DNA from: an uncultured Acidobacteriota bacterium
GTDB taxonomy: Bacteria; Acidobacteriota; Thermoanaerobaculia; Multivoradales; UBA5704
Reading direction: 5' to 3'
Assembly (NCBI GenBank): GCA_963761805.1
Contig: CAVXIV010000023.1
Coordinates: 609,378-673,377, forward strand
DNA: 64,000 nt
Numbering within the stretch: position 1 is the first letter of the stretch; every line of letters starts with the position of its first letter. A model generated the notes under the pieces. That model did no database searches. It had not been told where the DNA came from and worked only from the letters and a program-made list of their open reading frames with translations. Shown here in pieces: positions 24,138-58,732 of the stretch. Position numbers and translations under genes: made by a program.

Positions 24138-24563
<426 letters not shown>

Positions 24564-25261
24564 GCGGCCTATTCTATCGGCACGGCTTCCCTGCTACTCT
24601 GAAGTCACGAAAATGACTCCGCTCCCTTTTTACCGGACCCTGAGACTCCTCGTAGAAAGATCTGCCAATCTTCGTCCGGAATCCCGGTCGCGGGACGCGT
24701 TCCAGGCCGCCGTACCCGCCAGAAGGATCGGTTCTGATGCCTGGAGAAAAGTTGGTTCGGGAATTGCACCAAGCGTATTGCCGTGAGAGGAGTTGTATTC
24801 GCCCCTGGCGGGGCCCGCAATCCGACACGGAACGGCATGGTCAGCGCCGGCTGGCGCCGGGCTTCCCGGCTGACCGGCCGCAACGCGTTGCTCGACGCGC
24901 CGCGACCGGTCACGACGCCGCTCCTCCCCGGAGCGGAGGAGCCTGTGACTCGTGAGAGTCTGGACTCCAGCGTGCCTCCCGACCAACCTCCGAGTAGCCC
25001 GGACAGCCCCGCCGATCTCCGGCCCGGGCTGTCGGCCTCCGACCCCGAATTTCTCTGCCTCACGCTCCCCACTGACCGCGCATTCCTCGGCGGCCACTTT
25101 CGGCTGCGAGGCCTCCCCTAACGGGTTGGCACGCTAGATCCATGCGCACGGAGCCCCCCGGGGCATTCCCGCCGGATTCCACATCCGGGTGGGTCGTCGG
25201 CGTTGAATCCCCGTTCACCCATCTACAGTCCATCATTCCGTCTTCACGGAGGAGCAGGAAA

Positions 25262-26416
25262 ATGAAGCAGGAGGCGTCCGCCTCGGCGGCGTTCGAGCCT
25301 TCGCGGCACGAGGAGATCTGCGCGATCTTCGGCGAGCCGTACGACCCTGGACTATGGAACGACTGGCACTGGCAGTTGCGGCGCCGCCTCACCCGCCTCG
25401 ACCAGCTCGAAAAGCTTCTGAACCTGACGGACGCCGAGCGGCGCGGCCTGCTGCTGGCCAGCGAGAAGTTCTCCGTCGCCGTCACACCCCACTTCGCGTC
25501 GCTGATCGATCCCTATGATCCCCGCTGTCCCCTTCGGCTCCAGGTCGTGCCGCAGGAGAGCGAGCTGGTGGTCAGCCGGGGCGACATGACCGATCCCTGC
25601 GGCGAGGACGGCTCCAGCGTCGTCGAAGGCCTGGTGCACCGCTATCCCGACCGCGTGCTCTTCCTGGTGCTCGACACCTGCGCCGCCTACTGCCGCTACT
25701 GCACCCGCAGCCGGCTGGTCAGCCAGGGCGAGCTCGACCCCCTGGGCCGCCGCATCGAGGCGGCGCTGGCCTATCTTGAACAGCATACCGAGGTGCGGGA
25801 CGTGCTCCTCTCGGGCGGCGATCCGCTGCTGATGTCCGACGCCACCCTGGACAAGCTCCTGGGCCGTCTGCGGGCCATCCCGCACATCGAATTCCTCCGC
25901 ATCGGCACCCGCATCCCGAGCTTCCTGCCGCAGCGCATCACGCCGGAGCTGGTGGCCGTGCTGCGCAAGCACCGCGTCTGGCTCTCCCTCCACTTCTGCC
26001 ACGCCCGCGAGCTGACGCCCGAGGTGGCCGCGGCCTGCGACCTGCTGGCCGACGGCGGCATCCCGCTCGGCTGCCAGACCGTTCTGCTCCAAGGGGTCAA
26101 CGATTCGGTGGAAGCGCTGCGCGACCTCTTCCACGGCCTGCTCAAGCTGCGGGTGCGGCCCTACTACCTCTACCAGTGCGATCCCGTGCTGGGCACCGGC
26201 CACCTGCGGACCTCCGTCGAGAGGGGGCTGGAGCTGATGTCGAAGCTCCGCGGCCACACGACCGGATACGCGGTGCCCACCTACGTCATCGACGCGCCCG
26301 GCGGCGGCGGCAAGGTGCCGATCCAGATGGAAACCCTTCTCGGTCAGGAAGACGGCGTCTGGCGGCTCCGCAACTGGGAGGGAAAAACCTTTTCATACGT
26401 CGATCCGGAGCGCTGA
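25262..26416 (+). CDS. kamA: lysine 2,3-aminomutase family radical-SAM enzyme (KamA/AblA-like)
   Basis: ATG at 25262 after a ggaggagcagg RBS. CxxxCxxC cluster motif CAAYCRYCTRS. KamA-like context (YPDRVLFLV, LLSGGDPL, YVIDAPGGGGKVP). Confidence 0.85.
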   Translation: MKQEASASAAFEPSRHEEICAIFGEPYDPGLWNDWHWQLRRRLTRLDQLEKLLNLTDAERRGLLLASEKFSVAVTPHFASLIDPYDPRCPLRLQVVPQESELVVSRGDMTDPCGEDGSSVVEGLVHRYPDRVLFLVLDTCAAYCRYCTRSRLVSQGELDPLGRRIEAALAYLEQHTEVRDVLLSGGDPLLMSDATLDKLLGRLRAIPHIEFLRIGTRIPSFLPQRITPELVAVLRKHRVWLSLHFCHARELTPEVAAACDLLADGGIPLGCQTVLLQGVNDSVEALRDLFHGLLKLRVRPYYLYQCDPVLGTGHLRTSVERGLELMSKLRGHTTGYAVPTYVIDAPGGGGKVPIQMETLLGQEDGVWRLRNWEGKTFSYVDPER

Positions 26417-27401
26417 TTGAAACGCCTGCGCATCGGCCTCTGCTACGACCTCAAGTCGGACTATCTCGCCGCGGGTTTCCCGCCCGAGGACGTGATGGAG
26501 TTCGACGAGGAGGAAACCATTCAATCCCTCGCCGGCGGCGCTGGAGGAGATCGGTCACGAGACCGAGCGGGTGGGGCGCGGCCTCGAGCTGGCGCGACGG
26601 CTCGCGGCGGGGGAGCGCTGGGACCTCGTCTTCAACGTCGCCGAAGGCGTGCGCGGACGCTCGCGGGAGGCCCAGGTGCCGGCCCTCTGCGAGCTGTTCG
26701 ATCAGCCCTACACCTTCTCGGACCCGCTGACCTGCGCCGTCACGCTCGACAAGCCGCTGACCAAGCGGCTGGTGCGCGACGACGGCATCGCCACGCCGCC
26801 CTTCGCCGTGGTGGAACGGCCGGAGCAGGCGGATGATCTATCTCTGGAATTTCCACTTTTCGTGAAGCCCGTGGCCGAGGGGAGCAGCAAGGGCGTGACC
26901 GGCCGTTCGCGGGTGTCGAGCCGAGAGGAGCTGCGGGAGGCCTGCGCCGAGCTGATCCGCACCTTCCGCCAGCCGGTGCTCGTCGAGTCCTACCTGCCGG
27001 GCCGCGAGATCACGGTGGGGATCGTGGGCAACGACGGCGACGCCGGTGCGGTGGGCGCCATGGAGGTCACCTTCCGGGAAGGCATGGACGGGGACTACAC
27101 CGCCGTCAACAAGCAGGACTTCGAGAACCGGGTCACCTACCGTCTGGTGGACGGACCGCTCGGCGCCAAGGTCCGCGCGATGGCCCTCTCGACCTTCCGC
27201 CTCCTCTCGTGCCGGGACGTGGCGCGGGTCGATTTCCGCTGCGACGCCGCGGACGAGCCGCATTTCCTCGAAGTGAATCCGCTCCCCGGCCTTCATCCCA
27301 CGTACTCGGACCTTCCCATCCTGTCCACCCTGGCGGGAATCTCCTACACCGATCTGCTCGGCCGCATTCTCGAAGCCTCCATCCGCCGGTGGGGCCTGTG
27401 A
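26417..27401 (+). pseudogene. D-Ala-D-Ala-ligase-family ATP-grasp enzyme 1, apparent 1-nt frameshift near 26535-26545
   Basis: Starts right after the kamA stop (LKRLRIGLCYDLKSDY..EEETIQSLA). Continues in the next frame (LEEIGHETERVGRGLEL..FPLFVKPVAEGSSKGV..EVNPLPGL). Confidence 0.7.
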
Positions 27402-28375
27402 ACCTGAGCGCCATCTCCCGCGTCCTCATCGCCCACAATCCGACGGATGAGGGGGACGACCCCTCGACGGCGGACGTGCTGGCGCAGGTCGGTCTGGTGA
27501 GGTCGGGCCTGGAAGAGCTGGAGATCCCCTGCCGGGCCGTGGCGATTCCCGACTGGATGCCCTGGCTTCATCTCGCTCCGGAACCCGGCGCGGTCGTCTT
27601 CAATCTCATGGAAGCGCCCCCCGGGGTGCCGCACGTCCATCCGGACGCGGCGGCCGTCCTGGAGCTGATGGGCATTCCCTTCACCGGCGCCTCCGCGGCG
27701 GCGCTCTCCCTGACCACGGACAAGCTGGCGACGAGGGCGCTTCTGGCGTCCGAGGGATTGCCGATCGCGCCCGGCGGCCGTCTCGATCCGGACTGTCCCG
27801 GCTTGCTCCACCGGATCCCCGGCCCGTGGATCGTCAAGCCCGCGAAGGAGGACGCGTCCCTGGGGCTCGAAGGCGATCCGGTCTGCGCCACGCGCGAGGC
27901 CGTCCTCGCCCGCGCCTGGAGCCTGGCCGCGCGCTTCCCGGGTCAGCCCCTGGTCGTGGAGACCTTCCTCCCCGGCCGCGAGCTGAACGTCTCTCTCCTG
28001 GCGGGCGAGGTCCTGCCGGTGGCGGAGATCGTCTTCGAAGATTTCCCCGAGGGTATGTCGCGGGTCGTGGGCTACGAAGCGAAATGGCGGGAGGACTCCT
28101 TCGAGTACATTCACACCGTGCGCCGCTTCCCGGAGGGCGATGAGGACGCGGACTTACTGGAGAATGTCCAAAAGCTTGCGCTGAAAGCGTGGCGGATCTG
28201 CGGGTTGCGGGGCTACGCCCGGGTCGATCTCCGTCTGGATCACAACGGCGAGCCGCATATCCTGGAAGTGAACGCCAATCCCTGCCTGGCTCCGGACGCC
28301 GGCTTCATGGCCGCCGCCGGACAGGCCGGATTGACGGCTGGCGAGGTTGTCCGGAAGATTCTCGCTGAGGTGTAG
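27398..28375 (+). CDS. D-Ala-D-Ala-ligase-family ATP-grasp enzyme 2
   Basis: GTG overlaps the preceding stop (GTGA). ATP-grasp hallmarks: WIVKPAKEDASLGL, ARVDLRLDHNGEPHILEVNANP. Confidence 0.8.
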   Translation: MNLSAISRVLIAHNPTDEGDDPSTADVLAQVGLVRSGLEELEIPCRAVAIPDWMPWLHLAPEPGAVVFNLMEAPPGVPHVHPDAAAVLELMGIPFTGASAAALSLTTDKLATRALLASEGLPIAPGGRLDPDCPGLLHRIPGPWIVKPAKEDASLGLEGDPVCATREAVLARAWSLAARFPGQPLVVETFLPGRELNVSLLAGEVLPVAEIVFEDFPEGMSRVVGYEAKWREDSFEYIHTVRRFPEGDEDADLLENVQKLALKAWRICGLRGYARVDLRLDHNGEPHILEVNANPCLAPDAGFMAAAGQAGLTAGEVVRKILAEV

Positions 28376-28377
28376 GA

Positions 28378-28851
28378 ATGGAGATCCGCCGCTCTCTCGA
28401 ATCCACTGACCGCGAGCCCCTGGAGGCGCTGATCCGGGAGACCGACTTCTTCAATCCCCAGGAGATCGGCGTCGCCCTGGAGCTGATCGACGACCGGCTC
28501 GCCAACGGCGAGTCCAGCCACTACCAGTTCCTGGTGGCGGAGCGGGACGGCGAGATCGCCGGCTACGCCTGCTGGGGCCCGATCCCCGGGACCGTCGCCG
28601 CCGCCGACCTCTACTGGATCGTGGTGCGTCCCGGCCAGCAGGGGAAGGGAGTCGGCGCCAAGCTCCTCGCCGCCGCCGAAGAATGGATGGCGAGCGCCGG
28701 GAGGACGCGCGTCTACGTCGAGACCTCCACCCGTCCGCAATACCTGCCGACGCGGGCGTTCTACGCTTCGTGCGGGTACCAGCAGGTCGCGGAGCTGGTG
28801 GACTTCTACGCGCCGGGGGATGGGAAGGCGACTTTCCTGAAGGTGCTCTAG
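28378..28851 (+). CDS. GNAT-family N-acetyltransferase
   Basis: Acetyl-CoA binding motif VRPGQQGKGVGAKLL. 157 aa. Starts 2 nt after the ATP-grasp 2 stop. Confidence 0.85.
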   Translation: MEIRRSLESTDREPLEALIRETDFFNPQEIGVALELIDDRLANGESSHYQFLVAERDGEIAGYACWGPIPGTVAAADLYWIVVRPGQQGKGVGAKLLAAAEEWMASAGRTRVYVETSTRPQYLPTRAFYASCGYQQVAELVDFYAPGDGKATFLKVL

Positions 28852-28854
28852 AAC

Positions 28855-29218
28855 ATGGAAGAACAACTGACTGGAAACCTGGACCATCCACAACCGCATC
28901 AACCGCTATGTCCTGGACGCCATCCCTCCCGAGGCGCTCTCCGCCGTCTCAGCCTCCAAAGGACGCAGCGTCGCCGAGCAGTTCGCGCACCTGCACAACG
29001 TCCGGCTGATGTGGCTGAAGCAGGCCGCGCCCGAATTGCTGGAGGGACTGGAGAAGATCGAGAAGGAGCAGGCGAACGATGCGGCACGGTTGAGCGCGGC
29101 ACTGGAAGCTTCGGGGGGCGCGGTGACGGACCTGCTACGTCAGAGCATCCGCGCCGGAGGCGCGTACTCTCGCTATAGGAAGCAACGTTGTCCTGGCGAG
29201 CTCCCGCCCGGACAGTGA
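28855..29218 (+). pseudogene. DinB-like fragment (disrupted or truncated)
   Basis: ATG frame MEEQLT.. switches near 28870 to WTIHNRINRYVLDAIPPEAL..AEQFAHLHNVRLMWL, which resembles the DinB superfamily. The C-terminus is atypical. Weak call. Confidence 0.3.
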
Positions 29219-29242
29219 TGCCCAGGCGGGCCTTGAGGCAGG

Positions 29243-29488
29243 CTAGCTCGGATAACGGCTCGGATCCTCGCCGTACGTTGACTCGTACTCCATGTTGCCG
29301 TCCTGTTTGTGGACCTTGATCTGCCCGAGCTCGCCCTCCTGGGCCTTCTGCCGGGCGTGCTCCACGGCCTCTTCCTTGGTGGCGAACTCCTTGCGGTACT
29401 CGGCGTTCTCCTGGGAAACCACCCAGCGCTCGCCGGACGAGTTCGGTACGACGTGATAAACAGCCCTTTCCTTGGTGGCTTGAGGCAT
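29243..29488 (-). CDS. DUF2188-like small protein
   Basis: YHVVPNSSGERWVVSQENA..FATKEEAVEHARQKA..IKVHKQDG matches the characteristic DUF2188 pattern. RBS aaggaggatag. Confidence 0.75.
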   Translation of the reverse strand: MPQATKERAVYHVVPNSSGERWVVSQENAEYRKEFATKEEAVEHARQKAQEGELGQIKVHKQDGNMEYESTYGEDPSRYPS

Positions 29489-29677
29489 GGTGGCTATCCT
29501 CCTTTACACCAAGAAGATGCGGCAATAAGCATGCCAGGAAGAGGACGGCCTTTCCGGATTCCCCGCTCCACACGACCGAAGGGCATCAAAGCGCGATCCT
29601 GCGTGCGGCAACCCCACTTGCGGTATTATTCCCTGTAGACTTCCTGAGCCTTGGGACATAGGAGACCAGGAGCACTA

Positions 29678-29926
29678 GTGGCGCTTAAAGCTTACGAGGA
29701 AGTAGTGGATCTTATAGCGCGCGGGAGCGATCCCGGGCGTGTTGTCGCCTTCCATCCATCGGAAGAGACCCAAGCCCGGGTAGAGGCCTTGATCTCTCGG
29801 GAGAAGAGTTCCGGGTTGACGGCAGAAGAGAAGTCCGAGCTCGACCATTATCTTCTGATCGAACACCTCATGCGCCTGGCCAAGGCACGGGCTCGGCAGT
29901 ATCTTTCTACATCCCAGCCCCAGTGA
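29678..29926 (+). CDS. small hypothetical protein translationally coupled to the HNH endonuclease
   Basis: GTG at 29678 after an aggag RBS (the ORF track opens at TTG 29651). Its stop overlaps the HNH start (GTGA). Helical and charged. Lower-GC region. Confidence 0.5.
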   Translation: MALKAYEEVVDLIARGSDPGRVVAFHPSEETQARVEALISREKSSGLTAEEKSELDHYLLIEHLMRLAKARARQYLSTSQPQ

Positions 29927-30372
29927 GCAGCATATCCCCGGGCCTTAGATGGTTCGTGGCGACACGAGCTGATCATCTTTGCGAATACTGCCTTCTGCAT
30001 TCAGAAGACATGTTCTTCGGTGGCCAGATCGACCACATCATCAGCGAAAAGCACGGGGGACGAACGCAGGAAGAGAATCTCGCCTTTGCCTGCGCCTACT
30101 GTAACCGCTACAAAGGAAGCGATGTCGCGTCAATCGTTCCTGAATCGGGCGAGTTGGTCCGCCTCTTCAACCCACGCACGGATCGATGGAGTGACCACTT
30201 CAGTCTCGGTCCGGACGGCATCACAATCCTTCCCCTGACGACTATCGGTGAGGTCACCTGTCGAACCCTTCGAATGAATGAAAGCCCTCGCCTCCTTGAA
30301 CGCGAAGCTCTTCGCCAAGTCGGGCGCTATCCGCCGCCAGGGGCGAAGAAACATTTGGGTGGTCTTGGCTGA
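29923..30372 (+). CDS. HNH endonuclease
   Basis: CEYC ... DHIISEKHGG ... NLAFACAYCNRYK is a classical HNH/zinc-finger arrangement. Confidence 0.8.
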   Translation: MSSISPGLRWFVATRADHLCEYCLLHSEDMFFGGQIDHIISEKHGGRTQEENLAFACAYCNRYKGSDVASIVPESGELVRLFNPRTDRWSDHFSLGPDGITILPLTTIGEVTCRTLRMNESPRLLEREALRQVGRYPPPGAKKHLGGLG

Positions 30373-30378
30373 ACAGCC

Positions 30379-31032
30379 TCAGCCGCCGCCGATCTCCACC
30401 ACCTCATCCCCGGCCACCACATAGACCCGCTCTCCACGCCGGGGGCGGACGGAGGCGCCGCCGGTGAAGTCCCCAAAAGCCGGGAGGAGCCCCACCCGCT
30501 CGCCGAAGTAGAAGCACGGCAGCTTCTCCCGCTGCCTGCCGGGGCCGGAGAGGGAGACCGCCGGGTGGATGTGCCCGGCGAGGACGTAGCCGCCGGCCTC
30601 CTCGGCGGGATGGTGACGGAAGGCGAAGGGGGGCTCGAAGCAGGGCTCGTCACAGCAGGTGAAGCCCCATTCCACAGGCGGGTCCCCTGCTGCCCGATCA
30701 TGGTTGCCGCGCACGAGAACGATCTCCAGCTCCTTGTGGCGGTCCCTCCAGGACGAGATCGCCGCAAGCGTCCGGCTGGCCTTTCCGGACTTCGCATGGA
30801 AGAAATCTCCCAGCAGGAGAAGACGTTCCGAATTTGTCCGCTCGATCGCCAAGCTCAATCGGGCGAGCGTCTCCGTGGTGGTGCCGCCGGGCAGCGGGAT
30901 GGCGGCGGCGCGGAAGGAGGCGGCCTTGCCGAGGTGGACGTCGGCCGCGATCAGGGTGCCGGTCCTCTCCCAGAACAGAGCGCGCTCGGGGAGGAGGACC
31001 AGGGGCTCGCCCTGGACTTCGGCGCGGATCAT
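30379..31032 (-). CDS. pdeM: ligase-associated DNA damage response metallophosphoesterase PdeM
   Basis: Calcineurin-like motifs DVHLGK, GDFFH, GNHD, GHIHP. ATG overlaps the helicase stop (ATGA). Confidence 0.85.
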   Translation of the reverse strand: MIRAEVQGEPLVLLPERALFWERTGTLIAADVHLGKAASFRAAAIPLPGGTTTETLARLSLAIERTNSERLLLLGDFFHAKSGKASRTLAAISSWRDRHKELEIVLVRGNHDRAAGDPPVEWGFTCCDEPCFEPPFAFRHHPAEEAGGYVLAGHIHPAVSLSGPGRQREKLPCFYFGERVGLLPAFGDFTGGASVRPRRGERVYVVAGDEVVEIGGG

Positions 31033-33488
31033 CCCGCCGCCTTCTCCAGCCGCGCCTGCATGCGCCGCACGCGGTCCGCCAGCTTCTCCGAGCTGATCTT
31101 CTGCTCCCGCAGGCGGTCCACCATCAGCGGGAACGCCATGGGGCTGGGCCGCGCGATCTCCACCAGCTTCACCCGCGTCCCCGCGAGACGGGCCAGGGCC
31201 TGGCCCATGCGGCTGCGCTCGAGCTGCTGCTCCAGCACCTCGCGGTGGGCCTGGAGGAGCAGCAGATTGCCCGGATCGTACTTGGCGAAGACCTCGTAGA
31301 AGAGGCCGCTGGAGGCCTGGAGGTGGCGGGCCGTCTTGCGCTGGCCCGGAAAGCCCTGGAACAGGAGGCCGGCGATGCGGGCGATGTCCCGGAACTGGCG
31401 CTTGGCCATCTCGGCGGCGTTGAGACTGGCGGGGATGTCCTTGGCCAGGTTGCCCGGCGACAGGAGGCCCGCCTCCAAGGCGTCCTCGAAGGGGGCGGGA
31501 TCGGGCGAGAGCAGCTCGATACCGTAGTCGTTCACCGCCAGGGTGAAGGTGATGGGGGTCAGGCGCGAGATCCGGTACGCGAACAGCGCCGCCAGCCCCT
31601 CGTGCACCAGCCGGCCCTCGAAGGGATAGAGGAAGAGGTGGTGGCCGTCCCGGGTCTTCAGCCGCTCGATCATCAGCTCGTCCACGGCGGGGACGGCGCT
31701 CCACGCGGCCTGCAGCTCCAGGAGGGGGCGCACCGCCTCCATCTCCGGACCCTGGAAGACGCTCCGCCGGGCCTCCTCCAGCCGCTCGCGCACGGCGGCG
31801 GCCAGGGCCGTCGAGAGGGGGAGGCGGCCGCCCATCCAACGCGGGATGGCCCCGGAGCGGCCTTTGGCTTTCTTGACGTAGGCCGTCATGTCACGGACGG
31901 ACTCCAGCTCCAGCAGCCGGCCGGCGAACACGAAGCGGTCCCCCAGCCGCATGCGGGCCACGAAAGACTCCTCCACCGTGCCCAGCTTGCCCCCGGAGAG
32001 GTATTGGACGGAGACGGAGGCGTCGCTGGTGATGGTGCCGATGGCCATGCGGTGCCGGCGGGCCACGACGCGGTCGGGCACGACGTAGAGGCCCTCCCTC
32101 TCCTCGACCCGGCGGTACTCCGGATAGGCGGCCAGGGCCGGACCGCCCCGGGTGACGAAGTCGAGGGTCCACTCCCACTCCGCCTCGCCGAGGTCGCGGT
32201 AGGCGTGGGCGCCGCGCACCTCGGCCAGCATCTCGGCCGAGCGGAAGCCACCGCCGGCCGCCACCGTCACCAGGTGCTGGGCCAGCACGTCGAGCGGCTT
32301 CTCGTAGGGGGTGCGGGGCTCGATGCGGCCGGTCTCCAGGGCGCGCCGGGCGGCGGCGACCTCGATCAGCTCGAAGGCGTGGGTGGGGACGCAGGTCACC
32401 CGGCTGGGTGCGCCGGGCCGGTGACCGCTGCGGCCGGCCCGCTGGAGCAGGCGGGCGATCCCCTTGGGGCTCCCCACCTGGAGGACGCGGTCGACGGGCG
32501 CGAAGTCCACCCCCAGGTCGAGGCTGGAGGTGCAGACCACGCAGCGCAGCCGCCCGGAGCGCAGGCCGTCCTCCACCCAGTCGCGGACCTTGCGGTCGAG
32601 GGAGCCATGGTGGAGGGCGATCTCGCCCGCCCAGTCGGGCCGGGCTTCGAGGATCGACTGGTACCAGATCTCCGTCTGCGAGCGGGTGTTGGTGAAGACC
32701 AGGGCGGTGCGTCCTTCCTCGACGGCGGCGATCACCTGCGGCAGGAGCCGCACCCCCAGATGGCCCGCCCAGGGGAAGCGCTCGAGGGTCTCCGGGATCA
32801 CGGAGTCGATGCGGATCTCCTTGGGCGCGGCGCCGCGGACGAGCCTCCCGGCGCGGCCGGTCCCGACCAAGGAGGAGAGGGCGGTGTCGATGTTGCCGAG
32901 GGTGGCGGAGAGGCCCCAGACGCGGAGGTCCGGCTGGAAGCGGCGGAGGCGGGCCAGGGCCAGCTCGGTCTGGACGCCCCGCTTGTTCCCCATCAGCTCG
33001 TGCCACTCGTCCACCACCACCAGGCGCAGCTCGTCGAAGCGGCCGCGGGCGCCGGGGAAGGAGAGGAGGAGCGAGAGGCTCTCGGGTGTGGTGACCAGCG
33101 CGGTGGGGAGCTTCTCCCGTTGGCGCTCGCGGACCGTGGAGGTGGTGTCGCCCGTGCGCCGCTCCAGGGTCCAGGGGAGCCCCAGCCCGGCGAGAGGAGC
33201 GCGGAGGCTCGCCTCGGTGTCCGCGGCCAGGGCGCGGAGGGGCGTCAGCCAGAGGACGCGCAACGGGGGAGCGGCGGCCCGGCGGCGGGGGCGCTTCTCG
33301 GGCTCGGGATGGTCCTCCATCCATTCCAGGAGAGCGGCCATCCAGGCGGCGTAGGTCTTGCCCGTGCCCGTGGCCGCGTGGATCAGGCCGCTCTCGCCGG
33401 CCCGGTAGGCGGCCCAGACCTCGCGCTGGAACGCGAAGGGGGTCCAGCCGCGGGAGGCGAACCAGGAGTCGAGGCGGTCGTGGCTCAT
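31029..33488 (-). CDS. lhr: Lhr-type DEXH-box helicase (ligase-associated DNA damage response helicase)
   Basis: Walker A ATGTGKT, DEWH box, SATLGN, TSSLDLGVDF, QRAGRSGH. 819 aa intact. Confidence 0.9.
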   Translation of the reverse strand: MSHDRLDSWFASRGWTPFAFQREVWAAYRAGESGLIHAATGTGKTYAAWMAALLEWMEDHPEPEKRPRRRAAAPPLRVLWLTPLRALAADTEASLRAPLAGLGLPWTLERRTGDTTSTVRERQREKLPTALVTTPESLSLLLSFPGARGRFDELRLVVVDEWHELMGNKRGVQTELALARLRRFQPDLRVWGLSATLGNIDTALSSLVGTGRAGRLVRGAAPKEIRIDSVIPETLERFPWAGHLGVRLLPQVIAAVEEGRTALVFTNTRSQTEIWYQSILEARPDWAGEIALHHGSLDRKVRDWVEDGLRSGRLRCVVCTSSLDLGVDFAPVDRVLQVGSPKGIARLLQRAGRSGHRPGAPSRVTCVPTHAFELIEVAAARRALETGRIEPRTPYEKPLDVLAQHLVTVAAGGGFRSAEMLAEVRGAHAYRDLGEAEWEWTLDFVTRGGPALAAYPEYRRVEEREGLYVVPDRVVARRHRMAIGTITSDASVSVQYLSGGKLGTVEESFVARMRLGDRFVFAGRLLELESVRDMTAYVKKAKGRSGAIPRWMGGRLPLSTALAAAVRERLEEARRSVFQGPEMEAVRPLLELQAAWSAVPAVDELMIERLKTRDGHHLFLYPFEGRLVHEGLAALFAYRISRLTPITFTLAVNDYGIELLSPDPAPFEDALEAGLLSPGNLAKDIPASLNAAEMAKRQFRDIARIAGLLFQGFPGQRKTARHLQASSGLFYEVFAKYDPGNLLLLQAHREVLEQQLERSRMGQALARLAGTRVKLVEIARPSPMAFPLMVDRLREQKISSEKLADRVRRMQARLEKAAG

Positions 33489-35185
33489 TCCACCGGTCTG
33501 GGCCGCGGCTTCTCGATCCCCAGCCAGTCCGCCACCCGGCCGGCCACCTCCGTGGTCCGCACCGGACCGGTGCTCCCCTTGGCGACGCCGCCGCCGAGGG
33601 CGAGGAAGATCCCGTGCATCGCGGGGTAGGTGTTGAGATACCCGTGCCTGCCGTAGACCGTAGTGGGCGCGGCCGGGACGCCGCCGGCCAGGAGACCGTC
33701 TTGGACGCCGAAGCCGGGACGGACGAGCAGGATCAGGTCGCCGCTGTTGGGGTGGTTCAACTGGAGCTCCGCCGCCTCCTCGCGGGCGACGATCCGTTCG
33801 ACCGGCCGCTCGCCGTCCACCGTCCAGACGGCGAACAGCTCGCGCAATCGCGGCAGGAGGTCCCGGCGGCCAGGAGCCACCCAGACGTGGCTGATCCCTC
33901 CCGAGCCCACGGCGTGAGCCACCGTTCCCTGCGCCAGGACGTTCCCCTTGGCGTCGGCGGCCAGAAGGCCTTCCCGCCGCAGGAGGACGTTGGGGTCGAT
34001 CGCGGTGTGGACGGGCGCCATGCCGTGGTCGCTCACCACCGCGACCACGGTGTTCCGCAGATCGAGGGAGCGCAGCAGGCGGCCGAGCTCCCGATCCACC
34101 GCCTTCCAGACGCGGTGCCGGGCCCGTTCCAGCTCCGCGCGGCGCTGCGGCGAGAAGCCCGGCTGGCGGGGATCGGCGAGGGTGAGCTCGTGACCCGCCT
34201 CGTCGATCACGGGGATGTAGCCCATGAGCAGATCCCAGCCGGGGCGCTCGGAGGCGGCGAGGAGGCTGTCGCCGAAGAAGCGGGCGAAGCGCTCGGCCTG
34301 CTCGGTCCAGGTGCCGAGATCGATCCCGTTCTCATCGTCCGGCGCGCCGGGCCAGTAGAGCCCCCGCCGGGCGAGGTCGGCGGCGAAGTCGGCCGGGTAG
34401 GCCTTGAGCGGGTAGACCCCGTTGAAGTAGATCCGGACGCGCCGCAGATCGGGAGAGGCCTCCAGGAGCTTGACGGGACAGACGGCGTCCCTGCCGCCGA
34501 GACTGCAGGGGATCTCCCGCCAGACGTTGAGGACGAGCGGCCGGCCCTGGACGGTCAGGGTGCCGCCGCTCGCCACCCGGATATGGAACGTCTGCGCCGC
34601 GGGCGTGCCCCGGGACAGCTCGAGCCGGACCCGCTTCCCGGCCTCTCCGGCGGACGCCCACTGCCCCTGCTCCAGCGTCACGAGCTGGGCCGGACGGTCT
34701 GGGTTGTTGACGTAGACCATCCCCCAGTCGGCCCGCCGGCGCTCGCCCCGGTCGTCGGCGCCCGGGAAGGTGTTGACAGCCACGCGCCGGCCCTGCCGCC
34801 GGGCCGCCTCCCACAGGGTTTCGGTCTCGATGGTGTGGTCGAAGCCGCGGACCGTCGTGGTGAAGGGGGCGCCGGGGAGCTGGATCGTGTTCCCCACGAT
34901 CCCCGTCTGGTCGGCGGGATAGCCGGTCGCCAGGCTGATGTGGTTCGGCGCGGTGAGCGTCGGATTGACGTTCACCAGCCGTTCCGCGACCTGGCCCTCC
35001 TGGAAGAAGCGGGCGAAGCCCCCCTCGGAGAGGACGCCCGCGCGCCAGAGCCGCCGCAGCTCGTCGGCGCCGGCGCCGTCCAGGCTCAGCAGGACGACCC
35101 GGCGCGGGGTCTGTCCGGGAGGAGCGGGAACGCTGGCGCAGGCCGCGAGAAGGGCGAGGAGGACAGGGAGGCTGGAGCGTCGCAT
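33485..35185 (-). CDS. secreted alkaline-phosphatase-superfamily nucleotide pyrophosphatase/phosphodiesterase
   Basis: Signal peptide. LLSLDGAGADEL and NPTLTAPNHISLATGYPADQTGIVGN (NPP-type nucleophile Thr context). VVSDHGM. Confidence 0.8.
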   Translation of the reverse strand: MRRSSLPVLLALLAACASVPAPPGQTPRRVVLLSLDGAGADELRRLWRAGVLSEGGFARFFQEGQVAERLVNVNPTLTAPNHISLATGYPADQTGIVGNTIQLPGAPFTTTVRGFDHTIETETLWEAARRQGRRVAVNTFPGADDRGERRRADWGMVYVNNPDRPAQLVTLEQGQWASAGEAGKRVRLELSRGTPAAQTFHIRVASGGTLTVQGRPLVLNVWREIPCSLGGRDAVCPVKLLEASPDLRRVRIYFNGVYPLKAYPADFAADLARRGLYWPGAPDDENGIDLGTWTEQAERFARFFGDSLLAASERPGWDLLMGYIPVIDEAGHELTLADPRQPGFSPQRRAELERARHRVWKAVDRELGRLLRSLDLRNTVVAVVSDHGMAPVHTAIDPNVLLRREGLLAADAKGNVLAQGTVAHAVGSGGISHVWVAPGRRDLLPRLRELFAVWTVDGERPVERIVAREEAAELQLNHPNSGDLILLVRPGFGVQDGLLAGGVPAAPTTVYGRHGYLNTYPAMHGIFLALGGGVAKGSTGPVRTTEVAGRVADWLGIEKPRPRPVE

Positions 35186-35194
35186 GGACGCATC

Positions 35195-37417: not shown

Positions 37418-39994
37418 TCAACGTCCGCTGACCGGGGAAGCTTCCCGGTTGCCCGGACGCGGGCGCGGCTCGGCGTCGCCGTCCACCTCGATGCGCGCCG
37501 GGCGGGTGCGCACGGCCAGCGGCTTCAGGCTGGCGTCCAGAGCCTTGCCCTCGAAAGCAAGGTCGCTCCGCCCCTGGGCCACGGCGCGGAAGACGACGCG
37601 GGCCACGGTTCCCTTGCCCTTCACGCCCGGGACCTGGCCCAGCCGGCTGGCGCCGATGACCAGCGAGCCGGGACGGCCGAAGTCGGACATCACCTGCGCC
37701 TGGCCCGTGCCGCCGAGGAAGTCGCCGGCGTCCACCCGCTCGACCTCCAGAACCTTGGGGTCGAACGACAGGGAGAGCGGCAGATGGGAGACGGCCCGTC
37801 CGGCCTCGGCCTGCACCCGCACCTCGAAGGTGTCGCCGGGGGAGACCGAGAGCTTGCCGGGGGTGAGCCAGAGCCGCACGGCGGGCGCCGCGGCGGCGGT
37901 CTCCGCGGTCATGACTTCCGCCGTGTCGGCCTCGCCGGCCTTGATGGAGGCGGGAACGGCCAGCGCGGCCGTGCCGGAGGCCGTCCGCCCGGAGACCAGG
38001 CCGCCCGGCGGCGGCACCTCCTCTTCGGGCGGTGGCGGCGGCGGCTCGGTGGGCTGCTGCGGCTGCGGCTGCCGGAAGATGTCGCTGGGCGGCGCCGACG
38101 GCACGAGGTTGACGCCGCCGGGCGGCTGCTGCGGCTCCTCCTCGGGCGGGACCACCTCGCCCTCCTCGCCGGTCTCGCCCGGCCGCAGGCCGCGGGGCAG
38201 GCGCTGGAGGCGGCGGCGGATGGCGTCCTGGATCTCCTCCGGCGTCCCTTCGTTGCCGTCGAACGGCCCCTCCTCGGGGGACTCGACCCGCGGGCTGCCG
38301 CCGCGGAAGGTGATGTTCGCCTCGGTGCCCACCCAGATCGGCTCCAGGTCCTCCTGGGTGATCTCGGCGTTGCGGATGATGTGCGGCGTCAGCGTCAGGA
38401 TCACGTCCGTCCGCTGGTTCTGGGTGTTCCGGCGCGAGAACAGCCGGCCGAGCACCGGCATCTCCGACAGCCCGGGGACACCGGCTTCGGAGTCGCTCTC
38501 GTCGCTGCGGATCAGGCCGGCCAGGAAGTTGGTCTCGCCGTCCTGGAGGCGGATCACCGAGTCGATGGTGCGGGTGCCGATGATCGGCTGCGACTGGCCG
38601 CCCGAGCCCTGGACGTTGCCGGCGAGGTTCGAGACCTCGACCTTGACCTTCAGCGTCACCTGGCGGTTGTGGTGCACCCGCGGCTCCAGGTCGATGCGGA
38701 TGCCCACGTCCTGGTACTGGAACGAGGTGATGGGGACGATGCCGCCCTGCCCGCCGACGTTCTGGGTGTTGAACGTGGTGAGCGGGATCGGCACGCGGTC
38801 GCCGATCACCAGGCTCGCCTTCTCGCCGTCGGTGATGCGGAGCTGGGGCTTGGCCAGGAGCTGGGCGTCGGTGTTGGTCTTGACGAAGCTGTAGATGAAG
38901 TTGGGCAGCGTCAGGATCCAGTTGCTCGAGTTGATGAACTCCAGGTCCGACAGGCGCACGCCGTTGTTGGAGCCTTCCTCCCCGGAGTTGCCGAAGTCCA
39001 GGCTCTGGGTGACCGAGTACTGCGACAGGCTGACGCCGAGGTCGCGCAGGCGGGCGGTGTTGATCTGCAGCAGCTCGACGTCGATCACCACCTCGGCCTT
39101 GGACTTGTCGTTGGCCTCGATGATGCGCTCGGCCACCTTCACCTTGTCCGCCGTGTCGCGGAGGATGATGGCGTTGAGCTGCTCGTTGGTGGCGATCTTC
39201 TGCGCGTCGATGAGGCTGCGGAGGATCGTCAGCATGTCCTTGACCTCGGAGTTCGAGAGGAAGAACGTCTGGATGACGAGGTCCTCGTAGGTGCGGCGGT
39301 TCTGCGGCGTGTCCTGGGCGATGATGATGGTGTGCTCGTCCATCACCTTGTAGAAGTGGCCGGAGGCGCGCATCAAGGTCTCGAGCGCCGCCTGGGCGGT
39401 CACGTCCTTGAGGTCGATGGCGATCTCCTGGTCGCGCAGGTTGGGATCGAACAGGATGTTGATCCCGAACGCCTGGCCGAGGGCGCGGTAGATGGCGAAG
39501 ATCGAGGCCTGCTGCGGGAACTCCAGCGAGATGGGCTTGTCCGAGCGCGGGTTGAGGACCGGCGGCTGCGGCCGGGCGCCGCGCGCCTTCAGCTTCATCT
39601 GCTCGATGGTCTCGACGCCCTGGCTCTGCCGCTGGGCCACATAGGCCCGGTGGGTGTTCTCGAGCTGCGCCTTGGCGTACTGGTTGGTGGAATCGAGCTG
39701 GACCGCCTGCTGGTACTCGACCAGCGCCCGCTCCAGCACGCCCGCCTTCTCGAACTCCTGGCCCTTCTCGAGGTGGGCCTGCGAGGCCTTGATCTTGGCG
39801 CGCATCAGGGCGGCGCGGTAGGAGATGTTGTCCGGCTCCAGCTCGACCGCCCGCATGTAGTGGAGAACGGCGTCATCCCACTTCCCCAGTTGGAAGGCGA
39901 TGTCGCCCTGCCGGTAGCTCTGGTGGCTGGTGCAGCCGGCCAGCAGCCCGAGGACGAGCAGCGGGATCGACATCCGGACGATGAATTGGCGCAT
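37418..39994 (-). CDS. gspD: secretin (GspD/PilQ family) with N-terminal lipoprotein/TPR region and C-terminal cohesin-like domain
   Basis: Lipobox LLAGC. TPR-like helices. Secretin-N repeats and secretin core (..VIRLQDGETNFLAGLIRSDE..VPGLSEMPVLGRLFS..ILTLTPHII). Pro-rich linker. Then LSVSPGDTFEVRVQAE..LSLSFDPKVLEV..GKGTVARVVFRAVAQG, which is cohesin-like. Confidence 0.85.
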   Translation of the reverse strand: MRQFIVRMSIPLLVLGLLAGCTSHQSYRQGDIAFQLGKWDDAVLHYMRAVELEPDNISYRAALMRAKIKASQAHLEKGQEFEKAGVLERALVEYQQAVQLDSTNQYAKAQLENTHRAYVAQRQSQGVETIEQMKLKARGARPQPPVLNPRSDKPISLEFPQQASIFAIYRALGQAFGINILFDPNLRDQEIAIDLKDVTAQAALETLMRASGHFYKVMDEHTIIIAQDTPQNRRTYEDLVIQTFFLSNSEVKDMLTILRSLIDAQKIATNEQLNAIILRDTADKVKVAERIIEANDKSKAEVVIDVELLQINTARLRDLGVSLSQYSVTQSLDFGNSGEEGSNNGVRLSDLEFINSSNWILTLPNFIYSFVKTNTDAQLLAKPQLRITDGEKASLVIGDRVPIPLTTFNTQNVGGQGGIVPITSFQYQDVGIRIDLEPRVHHNRQVTLKVKVEVSNLAGNVQGSGGQSQPIIGTRTIDSVIRLQDGETNFLAGLIRSDESDSEAGVPGLSEMPVLGRLFSRRNTQNQRTDVILTLTPHIIRNAEITQEDLEPIWVGTEANITFRGGSPRVESPEEGPFDGNEGTPEEIQDAIRRRLQRLPRGLRPGETGEEGEVVPPEEEPQQPPGGVNLVPSAPPSDIFRQPQPQQPTEPPPPPPEEEVPPPGGLVSGRTASGTAALAVPASIKAGEADTAEVMTAETAAAAPAVRLWLTPGKLSVSPGDTFEVRVQAEAGRAVSHLPLSLSFDPKVLEVERVDAGDFLGGTGQAQVMSDFGRPGSLVIGASRLGQVPGVKGKGTVARVVFRAVAQGRSDLAFEGKALDASLKPLAVRTRPARIEVDGDAEPRPRPGNREASPVSGR

Positions 39995-40015
39995 GTTTCG
40001 AAATTCCTCTCCGCG

Positions 40016-40677
40016 CTAGCGGCGACGGACGCCTACACGCTTCGCGGGCACGTCAGGAAAGCCCACGAAACGGATATCCACGGATTCGTAGCCGATGCGT
40101 TCCACGATGAACTGATTCTGGATCTTGTCCCCTTCGAGGACGTTGATCTGCTTCTTGCCGTCGATGAAGACGGCGATCTTCTTGTCCGCCGGGCCGAAGA
40201 AGCCCATGTACTCCATGGTGAACTCCGGCGGACGCGGCTTGGCCGCTTCATCGGCCGCTGCCGCTCCAGCTCGGCCAGCCGCTCGCGCTCGAGCCGCTCG
40301 GCCTCGAGCCGCTTCAGATCCTCGTCCGACGGCGGCCGCGGCGGCGGCGGCGGCTTGACCGGCGGCGGCGGCGGATCGATGAACCGCCACGGATCGCGCC
40401 CGGCCACCAGGGGCCCGGGCGGGCGGTCGAGCTCGGCCACGCGCAGGATCTCCACCCGGTCTCCGGGCCGCGCTCCCCGGCTCTCCTCGCCGGAGCCGGA
40501 GGAGGCCGGCGGCGCCGGCCCATCCTCGTCCAGCCCGCCGCCCGGCGCCGTTCGCGCCGGGACCACGACTTCGTCGCCGCCGCCCAGCAGCGGCGAGATC
40601 CCGTAGCGCCACGCCACGATCAGCGCCAGGACGCCGAGCACCATCATCAATCGCTTCTGCCGCTCGGCGGGCGTCAT
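40016..40677 (-). pseudogene. PilP/GspC-like periplasmic assembly protein, one frameshift near 40262
   Basis: N-terminal TM helix (LMMVLGVLALIVAW), Pro-rich and coiled-coil region. The C-terminal beta domain lies in another frame (EFTMEYMGFFGPADKKIAVFIDGKKQINVLEGDKI..). Confidence 0.55.
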
Positions 40678-41288
40678 GACGCGCCTCCCGCGCCGGTCCC
40701 GCCGGTTTCAGCCGGCGCCGCGGCCTCCGGTTCCCTGGCGAACAGGGTCGAGATCGCGATGTCGATGCGCAGCTCCGGCCCGCCGCCGGAGGCGCCCGCC
40801 AGGTTGATCTCTTCGACCGTCAGGAACGAGCGGGAGGCCTCCAGGAGGTGGAGGAACTGGCGCAGCTCGGCATAGGTGCCCTCGACCTGGAAGAGGGAGG
40901 ACCGCTTGATGAGGCCGTAGTCGTCGATGTCCTCTTCCGGATAGGAGTACGCCCTGGGCTCGAGCCCGGCCTTGCGCGCCAGGCTCCGTACCTCGGACGT
41001 GAAGCGGGTCACGCGCTGGCTGCGGGTGGCGAGGCGGTCGGTGTAGAGCTGCCGGACCTGCCGCTCGTTGATGCTGACGCGGGTGAGCTGGGTCTGCAGA
41101 TCCTTCTTCTTGGTCTCCAGGTCCCGCAGATCCTTCTCCTGCTGGGTCAGGGTGCTCTCCAGCGTCGCCACCCGGCCGGAGTAGCCGAGCCGGTAGACGA
41201 CGAAGCCGGCGGCGTTGGCCAGGAAGAAGACCAGGGCGGGCGCCCAGATCCACACGCGCAGGCGCCAGGCCTCGCCGCGCGACCTCAC
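40674..41288 (-). CDS. pilO: PilO/GspM-like assembly protein
   Basis: Single TM helix, coiled coil (LESTLTQQEKDLRDLETKKKDLQTQL), C-terminal ferredoxin-like region. Start overlaps the upstream stop (GTGA). Confidence 0.65.
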   Translation of the reverse strand: MRSRGEAWRLRVWIWAPALVFFLANAAGFVVYRLGYSGRVATLESTLTQQEKDLRDLETKKKDLQTQLTRVSINERQVRQLYTDRLATRSQRVTRFTSEVRSLARKAGLEPRAYSYPEEDIDDYGLIKRSSLFQVEGTYAELRQFLHLLEASRSFLTVEEINLAGASGGGPELRIDIAISTLFAREPEAAAPAETGGTGAGGAS

Positions 41289-42053
41289 CGCCGGCCTCCC
41301 GGAGGAGCCGCCGCAGGCGCCTCCTCCTCGACGATCACGTTCTGGGCCTCGGCGCCCGGGATGTACTGTACGGTGAGCTCAAACCTCAAGATGTTGTCCT
41401 GTTCCAGACGCTCTTCGCGGGCCAGGTTCGGCTCCGCGAAGGGATGCGCGAACAGATTTTCTACGAATCGGTCGAGCGCTTCGTCACTCCTGGCCTCGCC
41501 GAAGATCTGCAGCGTCACCTGACCCTCCCGGATCCGGGCCTGGGCAGCCTTCCCCGAGCTCCGGCCCGCCCGCCGGGCCTGCTCGCCGGTCACCGGCGCT
41601 CAGCCGGGAGAGGCGCACGTCGTTGGGCATCACCCGCGAGAGGTGGTCGAACAGACGGTTCCAGGAGAACGTGCGGTCCGCGATCTTCTGGTTCAGGAAG
41701 CGGATCTCGGCGTTGAGGTCCTCGAGGTCGATGCCGTCGAGGCGGTTCTCGAGCTCCCGCGCCTCCGCCTGCCGCCTCTGGACGGCCTCCTCGCCGCGCG
41801 CCACCTCGGCGCGCTTGTCCTCGGACTCCGAGAGGTAGCTCCAGAACAGCGAGACGTTGCCCAGCAGCAGGACCAGCCCGAGCAGCCAGAGCAGCAGCGA
41901 GACCCGCACCACCGGCCGGGTGTTGAGGAACGGCCGGCGCGAGAGGTTGAGCCCCTCGTAGCGGACCGGACCGGCCGGCGGAGCCGGAGACGGCCGCGCC
42001 GCCGGGGCCGCCGGCTCCGGAGGAGAGGTCTGGCTCTGGGGTGGATTCTCCAT
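41285..42053 (-). pseudogene. pilN: PilN-like assembly protein, one frameshift near 41600
   Basis: NLSRRPFLNTRPV + TM helix + coiled coil + FSWNRLFDHLSRVMPNDVRLSRLS is typical of PilN. The C-terminus continues in another frame (QVTLQIFGEARSDEALDRFVENL..). Confidence 0.6.
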
Positions 42054-43016: not shown

Positions 43017-44675
<1,659 letters not shown>

Positions 44676-44703
44676 CTCTCCAGACTCTCCGCAACAAGTA
44701 GTG

Positions 44704-45915: not shown

Positions 45916-45936
45916 CCTGGACCCTTGTCTCCTTCT

Positions 45937-46632: not shown

Positions 46633-46725
46633 CGGCAACACGGAGTTTCTCGGGAGTTTATCGCGACAGGAGGCACGAGCGGCCAGGCCGCGGACGGGGG
46701 CAGGCATCATGGCTCCGGTCTGACA

Positions 46726-58475: not shown

Positions 58476-58732
58476 CCTCCCCCCTCCGCGCCCCCCCCGA
58501 GGGGATGTCCCGTTTCCGACGGGGGCGCGCACTACATAGACAGCATTCCAAGTTCTCTTGAAGTCCTCTGATCCTCAAAGGCGCTGAAGTGGTAGTGCGC
58601 CCCGCCGCCGGCCTTGTTCCTAGGGGGGCCCGGCGGCGGGACGCGAGTTCCCTCCCTTACCGTCCGCCGCCTCCCAGGGGGTGTCCGGCGCGTCGCGATC
58701 TGACGTAAGATTTCCGCGGCCTGCCGAAACCC

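Follow-up and report, generated by a model that had tools for sequence, protein, structure and literature searches.

A conserved operon joining a lysine 2,3-aminomutase-family gene to two Ddl-like ATP-grasp ligase genes: a candidate pathway for a beta-lysine-derived amide compound

What does a bacterium make when a lysine 2,3-aminomutase-family enzyme is encoded together with two amide-forming ligases and an acetyltransferase? The question is raised by four genes in a 64,000-nucleotide stretch of DNA from an uncultured Acidobacteriota bacterium (contig CAVXIV010000023.1, positions 609,378 to 673,377; hereafter the window). All four are read from the forward strand. The gene kamA (25262..26416) encodes a lysine 2,3-aminomutase-family radical S-adenosylmethionine (SAM)/pyridoxal phosphate (PLP) enzyme of 384 residues that carries the motif CAAYCRYC. 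AG1 (26417..27401; group AG-A) and AG2 (27398..28375; group AG-B) encode Ddl-like ATP-grasp ligases of 327 residues, once one inserted base near 26537 is removed, and 325 residues, respectively. The last gene (28378..28851) encodes a GNAT N-acetyltransferase of 157 residues with an intact QxxGxG acetyl-CoA loop. We propose, with moderate confidence, that these genes form one operon for a beta-lysine-derived amide compound, likely an optionally N-acetylated, tripeptide-like small cytoplasmic molecule with a role in stress or as a solute. In Acidobacteriota, expression of the operon would start at a sigma-54-type promoter and be coupled to a short upstream open reading frame (ORF) termed uORF2.

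Organisation of the operon and its conservation across phyla

The junctions between the genes are tight. According to the ORF listing and to direct reading, the TGA of kamA directly abuts the TTG start of AG1 at 26417 (gap 0), AG1 and AG2 overlap by the four bases GTGA (27398-27401), and AG2 ends with a TAG at 28375, the ATG of the GNAT gene following two bases further on at 28378. Pfam models assigned LAM_C and Radical_SAM to KamA, both above their cutoffs, Dala_Dala_lig_C to each of the ligases (E 3.6e-34 for AG1 and 2.4e-20 for AG2) and Acetyltransf_1 to the GNAT (64.8 bits for a cutoff of 20.7). A sequence-only reading of the window had described the locus as four tightly packed co-directional genes encoding a radical-SAM enzyme of the lysine 2,3-aminomutase family with CAAYCRYC, two D-Ala-D-Ala-ligase-type ATP-grasp enzymes and a 157-residue GNAT, and every part of this description was borne out. 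The unit had to be extended by an upstream part (24753-25261) lying outside the coordinates of that reading. Its inventory had also missed an HDAC-like gene that is a frequent fifth member in other phyla, an ORF termed orfX, and the proline-rich short ORF uORF2 with its RNA element.

The distribution of the cluster was surveyed by a scan with an AG2 alignment, using one genome per GTDB species, which yielded 66 loci that were then compared with the window proteins by tblastn. The genes kamA, AG1 and AG2 were colinear in 55 of the 66 loci. The GNAT gene followed in that order in 42 loci and was not detectable in the 13 others, about nine of which are complete; one of the 13 (L042) was inspected directly. 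AG1-AG2-GNAT without an adjacent kamA was found in 4 loci of the 66, one of them truncated and one (L054) deleted for kamA. In 5 loci, Myxococcota among them, an AG2-like ligase was accompanied by nothing but a GNAT, and in 2 it stood alone; the neighbours of the single ATP-grasp and GNAT pairs in Myxococcota offered no functional clue. Among the 120 best homologs of AG2, 54 were fused to a C-terminal GNAT. Homologs of AG2 were plentiful in metagenome-assembled genomes (MAGs) of Thermoanaerobaculia, and almost all sampled species of this group have the cluster in a stable syntenic setting.

The deletion in L054, a Thermoanaerobaculaceae MAG, is a clean one: at 6690-7060 kamA has been lost entirely, along with the 3' half of the upstream element. 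This joins the beginning of the short ORF with that of AG1, and AG1-AG2-GNAT stay behind the same promoter region.

Outside Thermoanaerobaculia, the full core was present in a Holophagae MAG (L060), in a delta-proteobacterial MAG (L066) and, with a permuted order, in a Gemmatimonadota MAG (L062). Additional contexts were found by searching with the sequence of PDB entry 2R7H, a close homolog of the GNAT, and looking up the neighbourhood of the matches. In the complete genome of Desulfovibrio mangrovi, the order is sigma-54 activator, kamA, AG-A, AG-B, GNAT and a GNAT-HDAC fusion; in a Planctomycetota MAG, it is amino-acid permease, kamA, AG-A, AG-B, HDAC and GNAT; in three further loci (L071-L073), a gene for a CxxCxxCC protein lies between kamA and AG-A, followed by AG-B, GNAT-HDAC and GNAT. 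Contigs resembling Oleidesulfovibrio alaskensis G20 carry a sigma-54 activator, kamA, AG-A, AG-B and a GNAT that is 99% identical to 2R7H. In all, the core was found in Acidobacteriota, Gemmatimonadota, delta-proteobacterial MAGs, Desulfovibrio/Oleidesulfovibrio and Planctomycetota. The HDAC-type amidohydrolase gene, which encodes about 580-600 residues, was located at 4142-5899 in L060, 8629-10386 in L069, 6265-8004 in L070 and 6211-8004 in L071, its hosts being Holophagae, Desulfovibrio, Planctomycetota and another MAG. Most of these proteins have a weak N-terminal GNAT-like domain, and the Holophagae locus counts among those with a GNAT-HDAC gene; no HDAC-type gene is present in the cluster of the window. 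The linkage first noticed in the window is therefore not unique to this genome. Judged from gene order, it is ancient, spans at least five phyla and goes far beyond chance, because the same order recurs across dozens of species and several phyla.

In the window itself, AG1 is split over two reading frames, as the sequence-only reading had noticed. Comparison with L001, a relative 90% identical to the window that served as the reference for calling insertions, pinned the frameshift to one extra G near 26537 (TCGCCGGCGGCGCTGGA in the window versus TCGCCGGC-GCATTGGA in L001), and deletion of one base restores an AG1 of 327 residues, the length of the intact L001 ortholog. This insertion is one of four uncompensated single-base differences from L001, the others being located at 23712 in the upstream zinc alcohol dehydrogenase gene, at 25067 in orfX, where an extra C shifts the C-terminus of the orfX product in the window, and at 28865 in a DinB-like remnant. 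As all four are insertions and all fall within annotated genes or called ORFs, the frameshift in AG1 is probably an assembly error rather than a sign of decay of that gene. Insertion errors of this kind seem to be systematic in the assembly, and other apparent frameshifts in the window therefore need caution.

The stretch just 3' of the GNAT gene (28854-30372) differs from that of relatives. The window has a DinB-like fragment, a DUF2188-like ORF and two small ORFs at this place; in L001, the equivalent stretch encodes BrnT/BrnA, a toxin-antitoxin pair, and its DinB gene is intact. By this comparison, the variable stretch marks the 3' boundary of the operon.

Relationships and predicted substrates of the encoded enzymes

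The KamA protein passed only the general KamA subfamily model, TIGR00238 (329.8 bits for a cutoff of 199.2). It remained below the cutoff of the AblA/KamA equivalog TIGR03820 (447.8 bits versus 525.4), as did nine cluster-linked KamAs of other lineages, which scored 447-508 bits with this model and about 245 bits with that of EpmB. The EpmB model gave 246.2 bits for the window protein, against a cutoff of 369.3 and a score of 533.9 for the E. coli EpmB control. The sequence-only reading had stated that membership in the EpmB clade, together with ligases that were ordinary cell-wall Ddl paralogs, would speak against a dedicated pathway; a score of 246 bits against 369 places KamA outside EpmB. 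The closest solved structure is that of the Clostridium enzyme (PDB 2A5H; 407 bits, 51% identity). Its residues C125, C129 and C132 (radical-SAM cluster), K337 (PLP lysine), R134 (substrate carboxylate) and D293 and D330 (lysine epsilon-amine) are kept in all eleven cluster-linked KamAs, that of the window included. The protein differs from 2A5H in its Zn site and at its C-terminal end. The Zn ligand C268 is replaced by Ser in the window and by D or N in the other cluster-linked KamAs, and the protein ends 34 residues past K337, the C-terminal Cys motif and oligomerisation tail being absent. Combined, these comparisons predict a distinct sub-branch close to AblA/KamA rather than to EpmB, and an enzyme that acts on free L-lysine, because the two residues that hold the free epsilon-amine, D293 and D330, are retained.

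The two ligases share only about 27% identity. With the corresponding enzymes of Desulfovibrio, Planctomycetota and L071, identity is 35-52%, AG1 reaching about 50% with the first ATP-grasp enzyme of these clusters. As each ligase is closer to its counterpart in these clusters than to its partner, AG-A and AG-B are two old, separate orthologous groups. Ddl was the best-scoring family for both in Pfam, NCBIfam and PDB comparisons, but all Ddl models stayed below their cutoffs; with the subfamily model NF002378 (cutoff 243), AG1 scored 162 bits and AG2 121.7. The ATP/Mg and catalytic residues of E. coli DdlB are K97, K144, E180, E187, K215, R255, D257, E270 and N272. All were kept in every cluster ligase compared, except for E270, which is kept in both window ligases and in all but one AG-B, D. 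mangrovi having a D at this position. In contrast, the residues that specify D-Ala are replaced. In AG-A, Y216 is changed to Q, A or E (Q in AG1 of the window) and L282 to D; in AG-B, S150 is changed to A, Y216 to an invariant W and S281-L282 to A-G. H63 is changed to E in both groups, and E15 of DdlB is unaligned in AG1 and AG2. The additional acidic residues (E in place of H63 in both groups and D in place of L282 in AG-A) would fit a basic ligase substrate. With scores below the cutoffs, altered specificity residues, co-conservation with kamA and fusion to GNAT, the two enzymes are not ordinary cell-wall Ddl paralogs.

The GNAT has an acetyl-CoA loop that reads QQGKGVG. It matched 16 NCBIfam models weakly, AblB not being among them, and passed no equivalog. 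Its close homolog is 2R7H (E 5e-31), a structure deposited under the name 'putative D-alanine N-acetyltransferase', and the protein 99% identical to that structure is itself part of the kamA-AG-AG-GNAT cluster of the G20-like Oleidesulfovibrio contig. Weak similarity was also seen to the tabtoxin resistance protein 1GHE (E 3.6e-4) and to the streptothricin acetyltransferase Sat2 (E 4e-4).

The region upstream of kamA in Acidobacteriota

About 700 bp separate kamA from a divergent HIT-family gene (24138..24563 on the reverse strand; Pfam HIT), and this interval is highly conserved in about 50 Acidobacteriota loci. The HIT gene is found upstream in nearly all Acidobacteriota loci and in none of the other phyla; we regard it as a syntenic neighbour only and do not claim that it belongs to the unit. 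The interval contains, in this order on the forward strand, a promoter-like element, orfX, a structured RNA element and uORF2, the last two overlapping.

The sigma-54-type promoter-like element (24753..24768; TGGTTCGGGAATTGCA) has GG and GC at the consensus spacing. It is conserved in the alignment, and in roughly 36 of the 52 Acidobacteriota loci checked the RNA element follows it at a constant distance. A sigma-54-type site is also present upstream of kamA in D. mangrovi (TGGCATATCTGTTGCT), beside the gene for a sigma-54 activator; no such activator was found among 20 further ORFs of the window.

The ORF termed orfX (24783..25121) begins with an ATG or GTG about 15 nt past the sigma-54-type element and encodes about 112-133 residues. 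Three islands are conserved in its product: AGWRRAxRL, PLDxGEKSAIVKSVDANVPPDQPPST and a C-terminal GCGVTPxGLTY. The distance from one island to the next is a multiple of three in 31 of 31 and in 35 of 42 loci, and that this is maintained despite many length variants shows translation of orfX. A gene of 116 residues is called at this position in L001. Neither this protein nor orfX had a Pfam match, and all 57 homolog clusters of orfX, an orphan restricted to Acidobacteriota, are hypothetical or unnamed.

The short proline-rich uORF2 (25142..25261) starts with an invariant ATG located 6-7 nt past the orfX stop in relatives and encodes M-x-TEPPGAFPPD... (M-R-TEPPGAFPPD... in the window). In 44 of 49 loci, it is a separate ORF of 38-75 codons at a distance of 2 mod 3 from the kamA ATG, and it overlaps the start of kamA by ATGA, which indicates that translation of the two is coupled. 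In the window and in L001, uORF2 is in frame with kamA, giving a form of 424 residues (window ORF 25142-26416). The peptide contains PPG and PPD, and orfX encodes PPD and PPS; some Holophagales copies of uORF2 lack both PP motifs. PPG and PPD are strong stalling motifs that depend on elongation factor P (EF-P).

A structured RNA element with four hairpins (25076..25204) overlaps both the end of orfX and the opening codons of uORF2. A covariance model of this element scored 102 bits in the window and had 52 matches with E<0.1 in 1.1 Mb, one per locus, all on the plus strand just upstream of kamA (of AG1 in L054); two further matches elsewhere (E 0.58 and 0.88) look like noise. In the model-fitted alignment, 90.6% of cells were paired, compared to 25-51% in slid controls, 16 pairs varied on both sides, and none of 500 shuffles reached the observed value; a plain MAFFT alignment gave weaker support for the hairpins. 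Conservation at codon positions 1, 2 and 3 was 90.9, 88.2 and 86.1% in uORF2, compared to 79.6, 81.2 and 62.8% in kamA, and in four loci single-base indels alter the uORF2 peptide yet the nucleotides are kept. With third positions as conserved as the others, nucleotides maintained across indels and hairpins that pair, constraint at the nucleotide level acts on top of coding, and the RNA element is claimed only where conservation is greater than coding would demand. Rfam 15 gave no match at the gathering score over the whole window, and at E<=1 only a 21-bit chance match in 24500-25400.

Other models of the region were tried and rejected. The upstream 300 nt or so had been considered as a purely non-coding riboswitch behind a sigma-70 promoter (TTGACA-N17-TATCGT). 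This was dropped following frame analysis, because that promoter sequence and the 5' half of the putative riboswitch lie inside orfX and the 3' half is the start of uORF2. A pseudoknot, with 74% of cells paired and little covariation, is not claimed, and RNAalifold on the plain alignment of the region gave no useful consensus.

Some short regulatory ORFs that contain proline codons, Salmonella mgtP among them, sense EF-P or translation, and SpeFL is an example of an arrest peptide. In a similar way, uORF2 is short and conserved, encodes PPG and PPD, spans conserved hairpins and is coupled to the gene of the first enzyme, but stalling on uORF2 is only predicted, and no Rfam family was matched. 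The arrangement of sigma-54-type element, orfX, uORF2 and hairpins in Acidobacteriota, as deduced from these alignments, is newly described here as a putative control region. In a compact form, it may represent a new kind of translational control.

A proposed pathway, its alternatives and other genes of the window

In the pathway that we propose, KamA would convert free L-lysine to beta-lysine by radical-SAM/PLP chemistry, and AG-A and AG-B would each form one amide bond via an acyl-phosphate. The carboxylate of beta-lysine would be the target of one ligase and an amino group the target of the other, so that beta-lysine would be central in a tripeptide-like molecule. The GNAT would work with AG-B and acetylate a remaining amine, and in other phyla the HDAC-type amidohydrolase would remove the acetyl group, which may serve as a protecting group or be removed in the course of turnover. 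The product, a small molecule of the cytoplasm that may also be N-acetylated, would serve in stress or as a solute. In Acidobacteriota, transcription would proceed from the sigma-54-type promoter and translation through orfX and then through the hairpin-covered uORF2 coupled to kamA. That the four-gene arrangement matches no characterised pathway, as first supposed, agrees with the full-text literature, in which no description of the cluster was found, the coverage not including the ATP-grasp context survey of Iyer et al. 2009.

Several known systems share parts of this scheme. AblA/AblB, which form beta-lysine and then N-acetylate it, likewise bring together an aminomutase of the AblA/KamA branch and a GNAT, but here two ligases lie between them, the 157-residue GNAT resembles 2R7H and has no match to AblB, and KamA is below the cutoff and without the Zn tail. 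In the synthesis of the dipeptide osmolyte N-acetylglutaminylglutamine amide, the bifunctional GNAT and ATP-grasp protein Ngg acts with AsnO. The physical fusion or coupling of GNAT and ATP-grasp for a small N-acetylated peptide recalls AG2-GNAT; the operon differs in the order (ATP-grasp, then GNAT), in having two ligases and in its beta-amino-acid-forming enzyme, features by which it is set apart from Ngg without a comparison to reference sequences. EpmB/EpmA also supply beta-lysine from a KamA-family enzyme to an amide-forming ligase, and the proline-rich ORFs hint at a link to polyproline translation, but KamA is not EpmB, the ligases are ATP-grasp enzymes and not LysRS-like, and no linkage to efp was seen in about 80 loci. 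The Ddl/Van family has the same fold and catalytic residues and provides the best Pfam, NCBIfam and PDB matches to AG1 and AG2, which differ by scores of about half the cutoffs, by replacement of S150, Y216, S281 and L282 and by a context free of murein genes. The kamA-yodP-yodQ... operon of Bacillus subtilis encodes a beta-lysine acetyltransferase and a deacetylase-like enzyme for lysine catabolism. KamA and an acetyltransferase, with a deacetylase in other phyla, are common to both operons, and the acetyl group may be a transient protection; here, however, genes for an aminotransferase or a CoA-transferase are lacking, two ligases occur in their place and the deacetylase is of the HDAC type. 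A comparison with graspetides and other ribosomally synthesised and post-translationally modified peptides found a small ORF (orfX) before kamA in Acidobacteriota only, and ligases of the Ddl type, not of the graspetide type.

A number of points weigh against the proposed pathway. About nine complete loci have the cluster without a GNAT, and in L035 and L044 kamA is not adjacent to AG1-AG2-GNAT, so that the parts of the cluster are separable. Nor does the cluster encode an exporter, an amidotransferase or any further tailoring enzyme from which the class of product could be told, and no amidotransferase was present in any cluster examined. The activity and stereochemistry of KamA are not certain, given its AblA score below the cutoff and the missing Zn and oligomerisation tail, and the name of 2R7H is a guess of its depositors. 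The role of the cluster members in a pathway is a prediction from sequence. The solute or stress role is weakly suggested, by analogy and by the saline habitats that Desulfovibrio species names imply. Finally, the frameshifted AG1 may render the window copy inactive if the extra base is real; the function of this copy depends on whether the base at 26537 is an assembly error.

Among the alternatives, the system could modify a protein or peptide, attaching beta-lysine or a short chain to EF-P in replacement of EpmA, to the orfX product or to another acceptor, with the GNAT and HDAC-type enzymes as writer and eraser of acetyl groups. KamA is paralogous to EpmB, and in Acidobacteriota kamA comes directly after a small ORF that is conserved. 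Motifs of the kind that stall without EF-P occur in uORF2 (PPG, PPD) and orfX (PPD, PPS), and EPPS, EPPD or PPPP in N-terminal extensions on KamAs of other phyla; one AG2 homolog has a Pfam match to tubulin-tyrosine ligase, and some ATP-grasp ligases have ribosomally made peptides or proteins as substrates (RimK, LysX and PGM1). Both ligases are nevertheless nearest to the small-molecule enzyme Ddl and not to RimK, tubulin-tyrosine ligase or graspetide ligases, orfX is restricted to Acidobacteriota, and retention of D293 and D330 predicts action of KamA on free lysine. A tblastn search with E. coli EF-P, which covered the window and about 80 loci (1.1 Mb), found no efp; EpmA was not searched for. 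Planctomycetes, furthermore, are listed with canonical YjeA/YjeK adjoining efp, and Desulfovibrio vulgaris Hildenborough is listed with EF-P but no lysine 2,3-aminomutase (LAM) gene, whereas D. desulfuricans/alaskensis G20, with the same EF-P type, is listed with three LAM-type genes, one of them adjacent to ablB, and neither YjeA nor YjeK (PMC2821294, Additional file 1). The cluster thus behaves as an accessory trait whose distribution does not follow EF-P type, and a general role in EF-P modification is disfavoured by this listed distribution of LAM, YjeA and YjeK and by the absence of efp from the fetched loci. We consider protein or peptide modification unlikely. A bolder view would see the core, with or without GNAT and HDAC, as an unrecognised phylum-spanning pathway, either for a new beta-lysine peptide metabolite (solute or cofactor-like) or as an ATP-grasp alternative to EpmA that beta-lysylates a protein, and set in Acidobacteriota by a new translation-sensing device in which translation of PPG/PPD in uORF2 would remodel the hairpins, ribosomes passing to kamA via the ATGA. 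Translation-sensing control of kamA is an attractive idea, and if true, such a device would tie synthesis of the beta-lysine compound to the capacity for polyproline translation; taken as a whole, this view is a long shot.

It is quite improbable that the operon makes a small beta-lysyl peptide antimetabolite or antibiotic, with the GNAT for self-protection by N-acetylation, as known from resistance to streptothricin or tabtoxin, and the HDAC-like enzyme for unmasking. Such a pair of acetylating and deacetylating enzymes would suit a pro-drug logic, several dipeptide antibiotics are built by ATP-grasp ligases, and the GNAT does resemble 1GHE and Sat2; these matches, however, are far under any family threshold, no transporter is consistently linked, and the stable context in nearly every Thermoanaerobaculia species sampled resembles physiology inherited vertically, not a patchy island of secondary metabolism. 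A substrate other than lysine (arginine, ornithine or glutamate), with a product that is not beta-lysine-based, is equally doubtful. KamA passed only the general model and did score 388 bits with the glutamate and 380 with the arginine 2,3-aminomutase model, but both values are far under the respective cutoffs of 650 and 600, as well as under the AblA score, and D293 and D330 are kept in all eleven cluster-linked KamAs. Both residues are replaced in glutamate 2,3-aminomutase, which, as Ruzicka and Frey reportedly described in 2007, replaces the carboxylates that bind the lysine epsilon-amine. At the level of sequence, arginine or ornithine retains a small probability as the substrate. A further account, an ordinary AblA/AblB pair for Nε-acetyl-β-lysine that merely lies beside two cell-wall Ddl paralogs, is very hard to credit. 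AblA is the best-scoring NCBIfam equivalog for KamA and a GNAT is encoded in the same operon, just as Ddl is the best-scoring family of both ligases. Yet KamA, both ligases and the GNAT are all under every equivalog cutoff, the Ddl specificity residues are replaced, and the ligases lie between kamA and GNAT in constant order across phyla, with AG2 fused to GNAT in many homologs. In addition, a G20-like contig carries the cluster and a separate ablA/ablB pair is listed for G20 (PMC2821294, Additional file 1), which suggests that the cluster is not the N-epsilon-acetyl-beta-lysine pathway of this organism. The description of the locus as an AblA/AblB-like pair is therefore unsupported or incomplete, for this reason and because the GNAT has no AblB match and is absent from some nine complete loci.

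If the operon does serve the synthesis of a beta-lysine-derived amide compound, a conserved set of genes that feeds beta-lysine to two dedicated amide ligases would represent a further, apparently widespread and unnamed use of beta-lysine, in hosts that include soil Acidobacteriota, sulfate reducers and Planctomycetota. The question is directly testable, because cultured Desulfovibrio and Oleidesulfovibrio relatives carry the operon and the crystal structure 2R7H exists.

Other parts of the window were examined briefly. On the reverse strand, 30379-35194 holds a metallophosphoesterase-like ORF, an Lhr-type DEAD/DEAH helicase gene (31029-33488) and a type I phosphodiesterase gene (33485-35194). 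Over the helicase and the phosphodiesterase, identity to L001 is about 94%, and the helicase of L001 has the domains DEAD, Helicase_C, WHD_Lhr and DEAD_assoc; the block looks like a DNA-damage-response set unrelated to the kamA operon. Further on, the reverse strand carries type II secretion and type IV pilus-like genes (37418-46725), including those for a secretin with TPR repeats and a C-terminal cohesin, a T2SSE ATPase with MshEN, a T2SSF protein and a second Secretin_N protein. At 58709-62758 on the forward strand, a single ORF of 1349 residues combines an N-terminal type IA topoisomerase (Toprim and Topoisom_bac) with a C-terminal RecQ-type helicase (DEAD, Helicase_C and RecQ_Zn_bind), so that two normally separate partners are fused in an order opposite to that of reverse gyrase.

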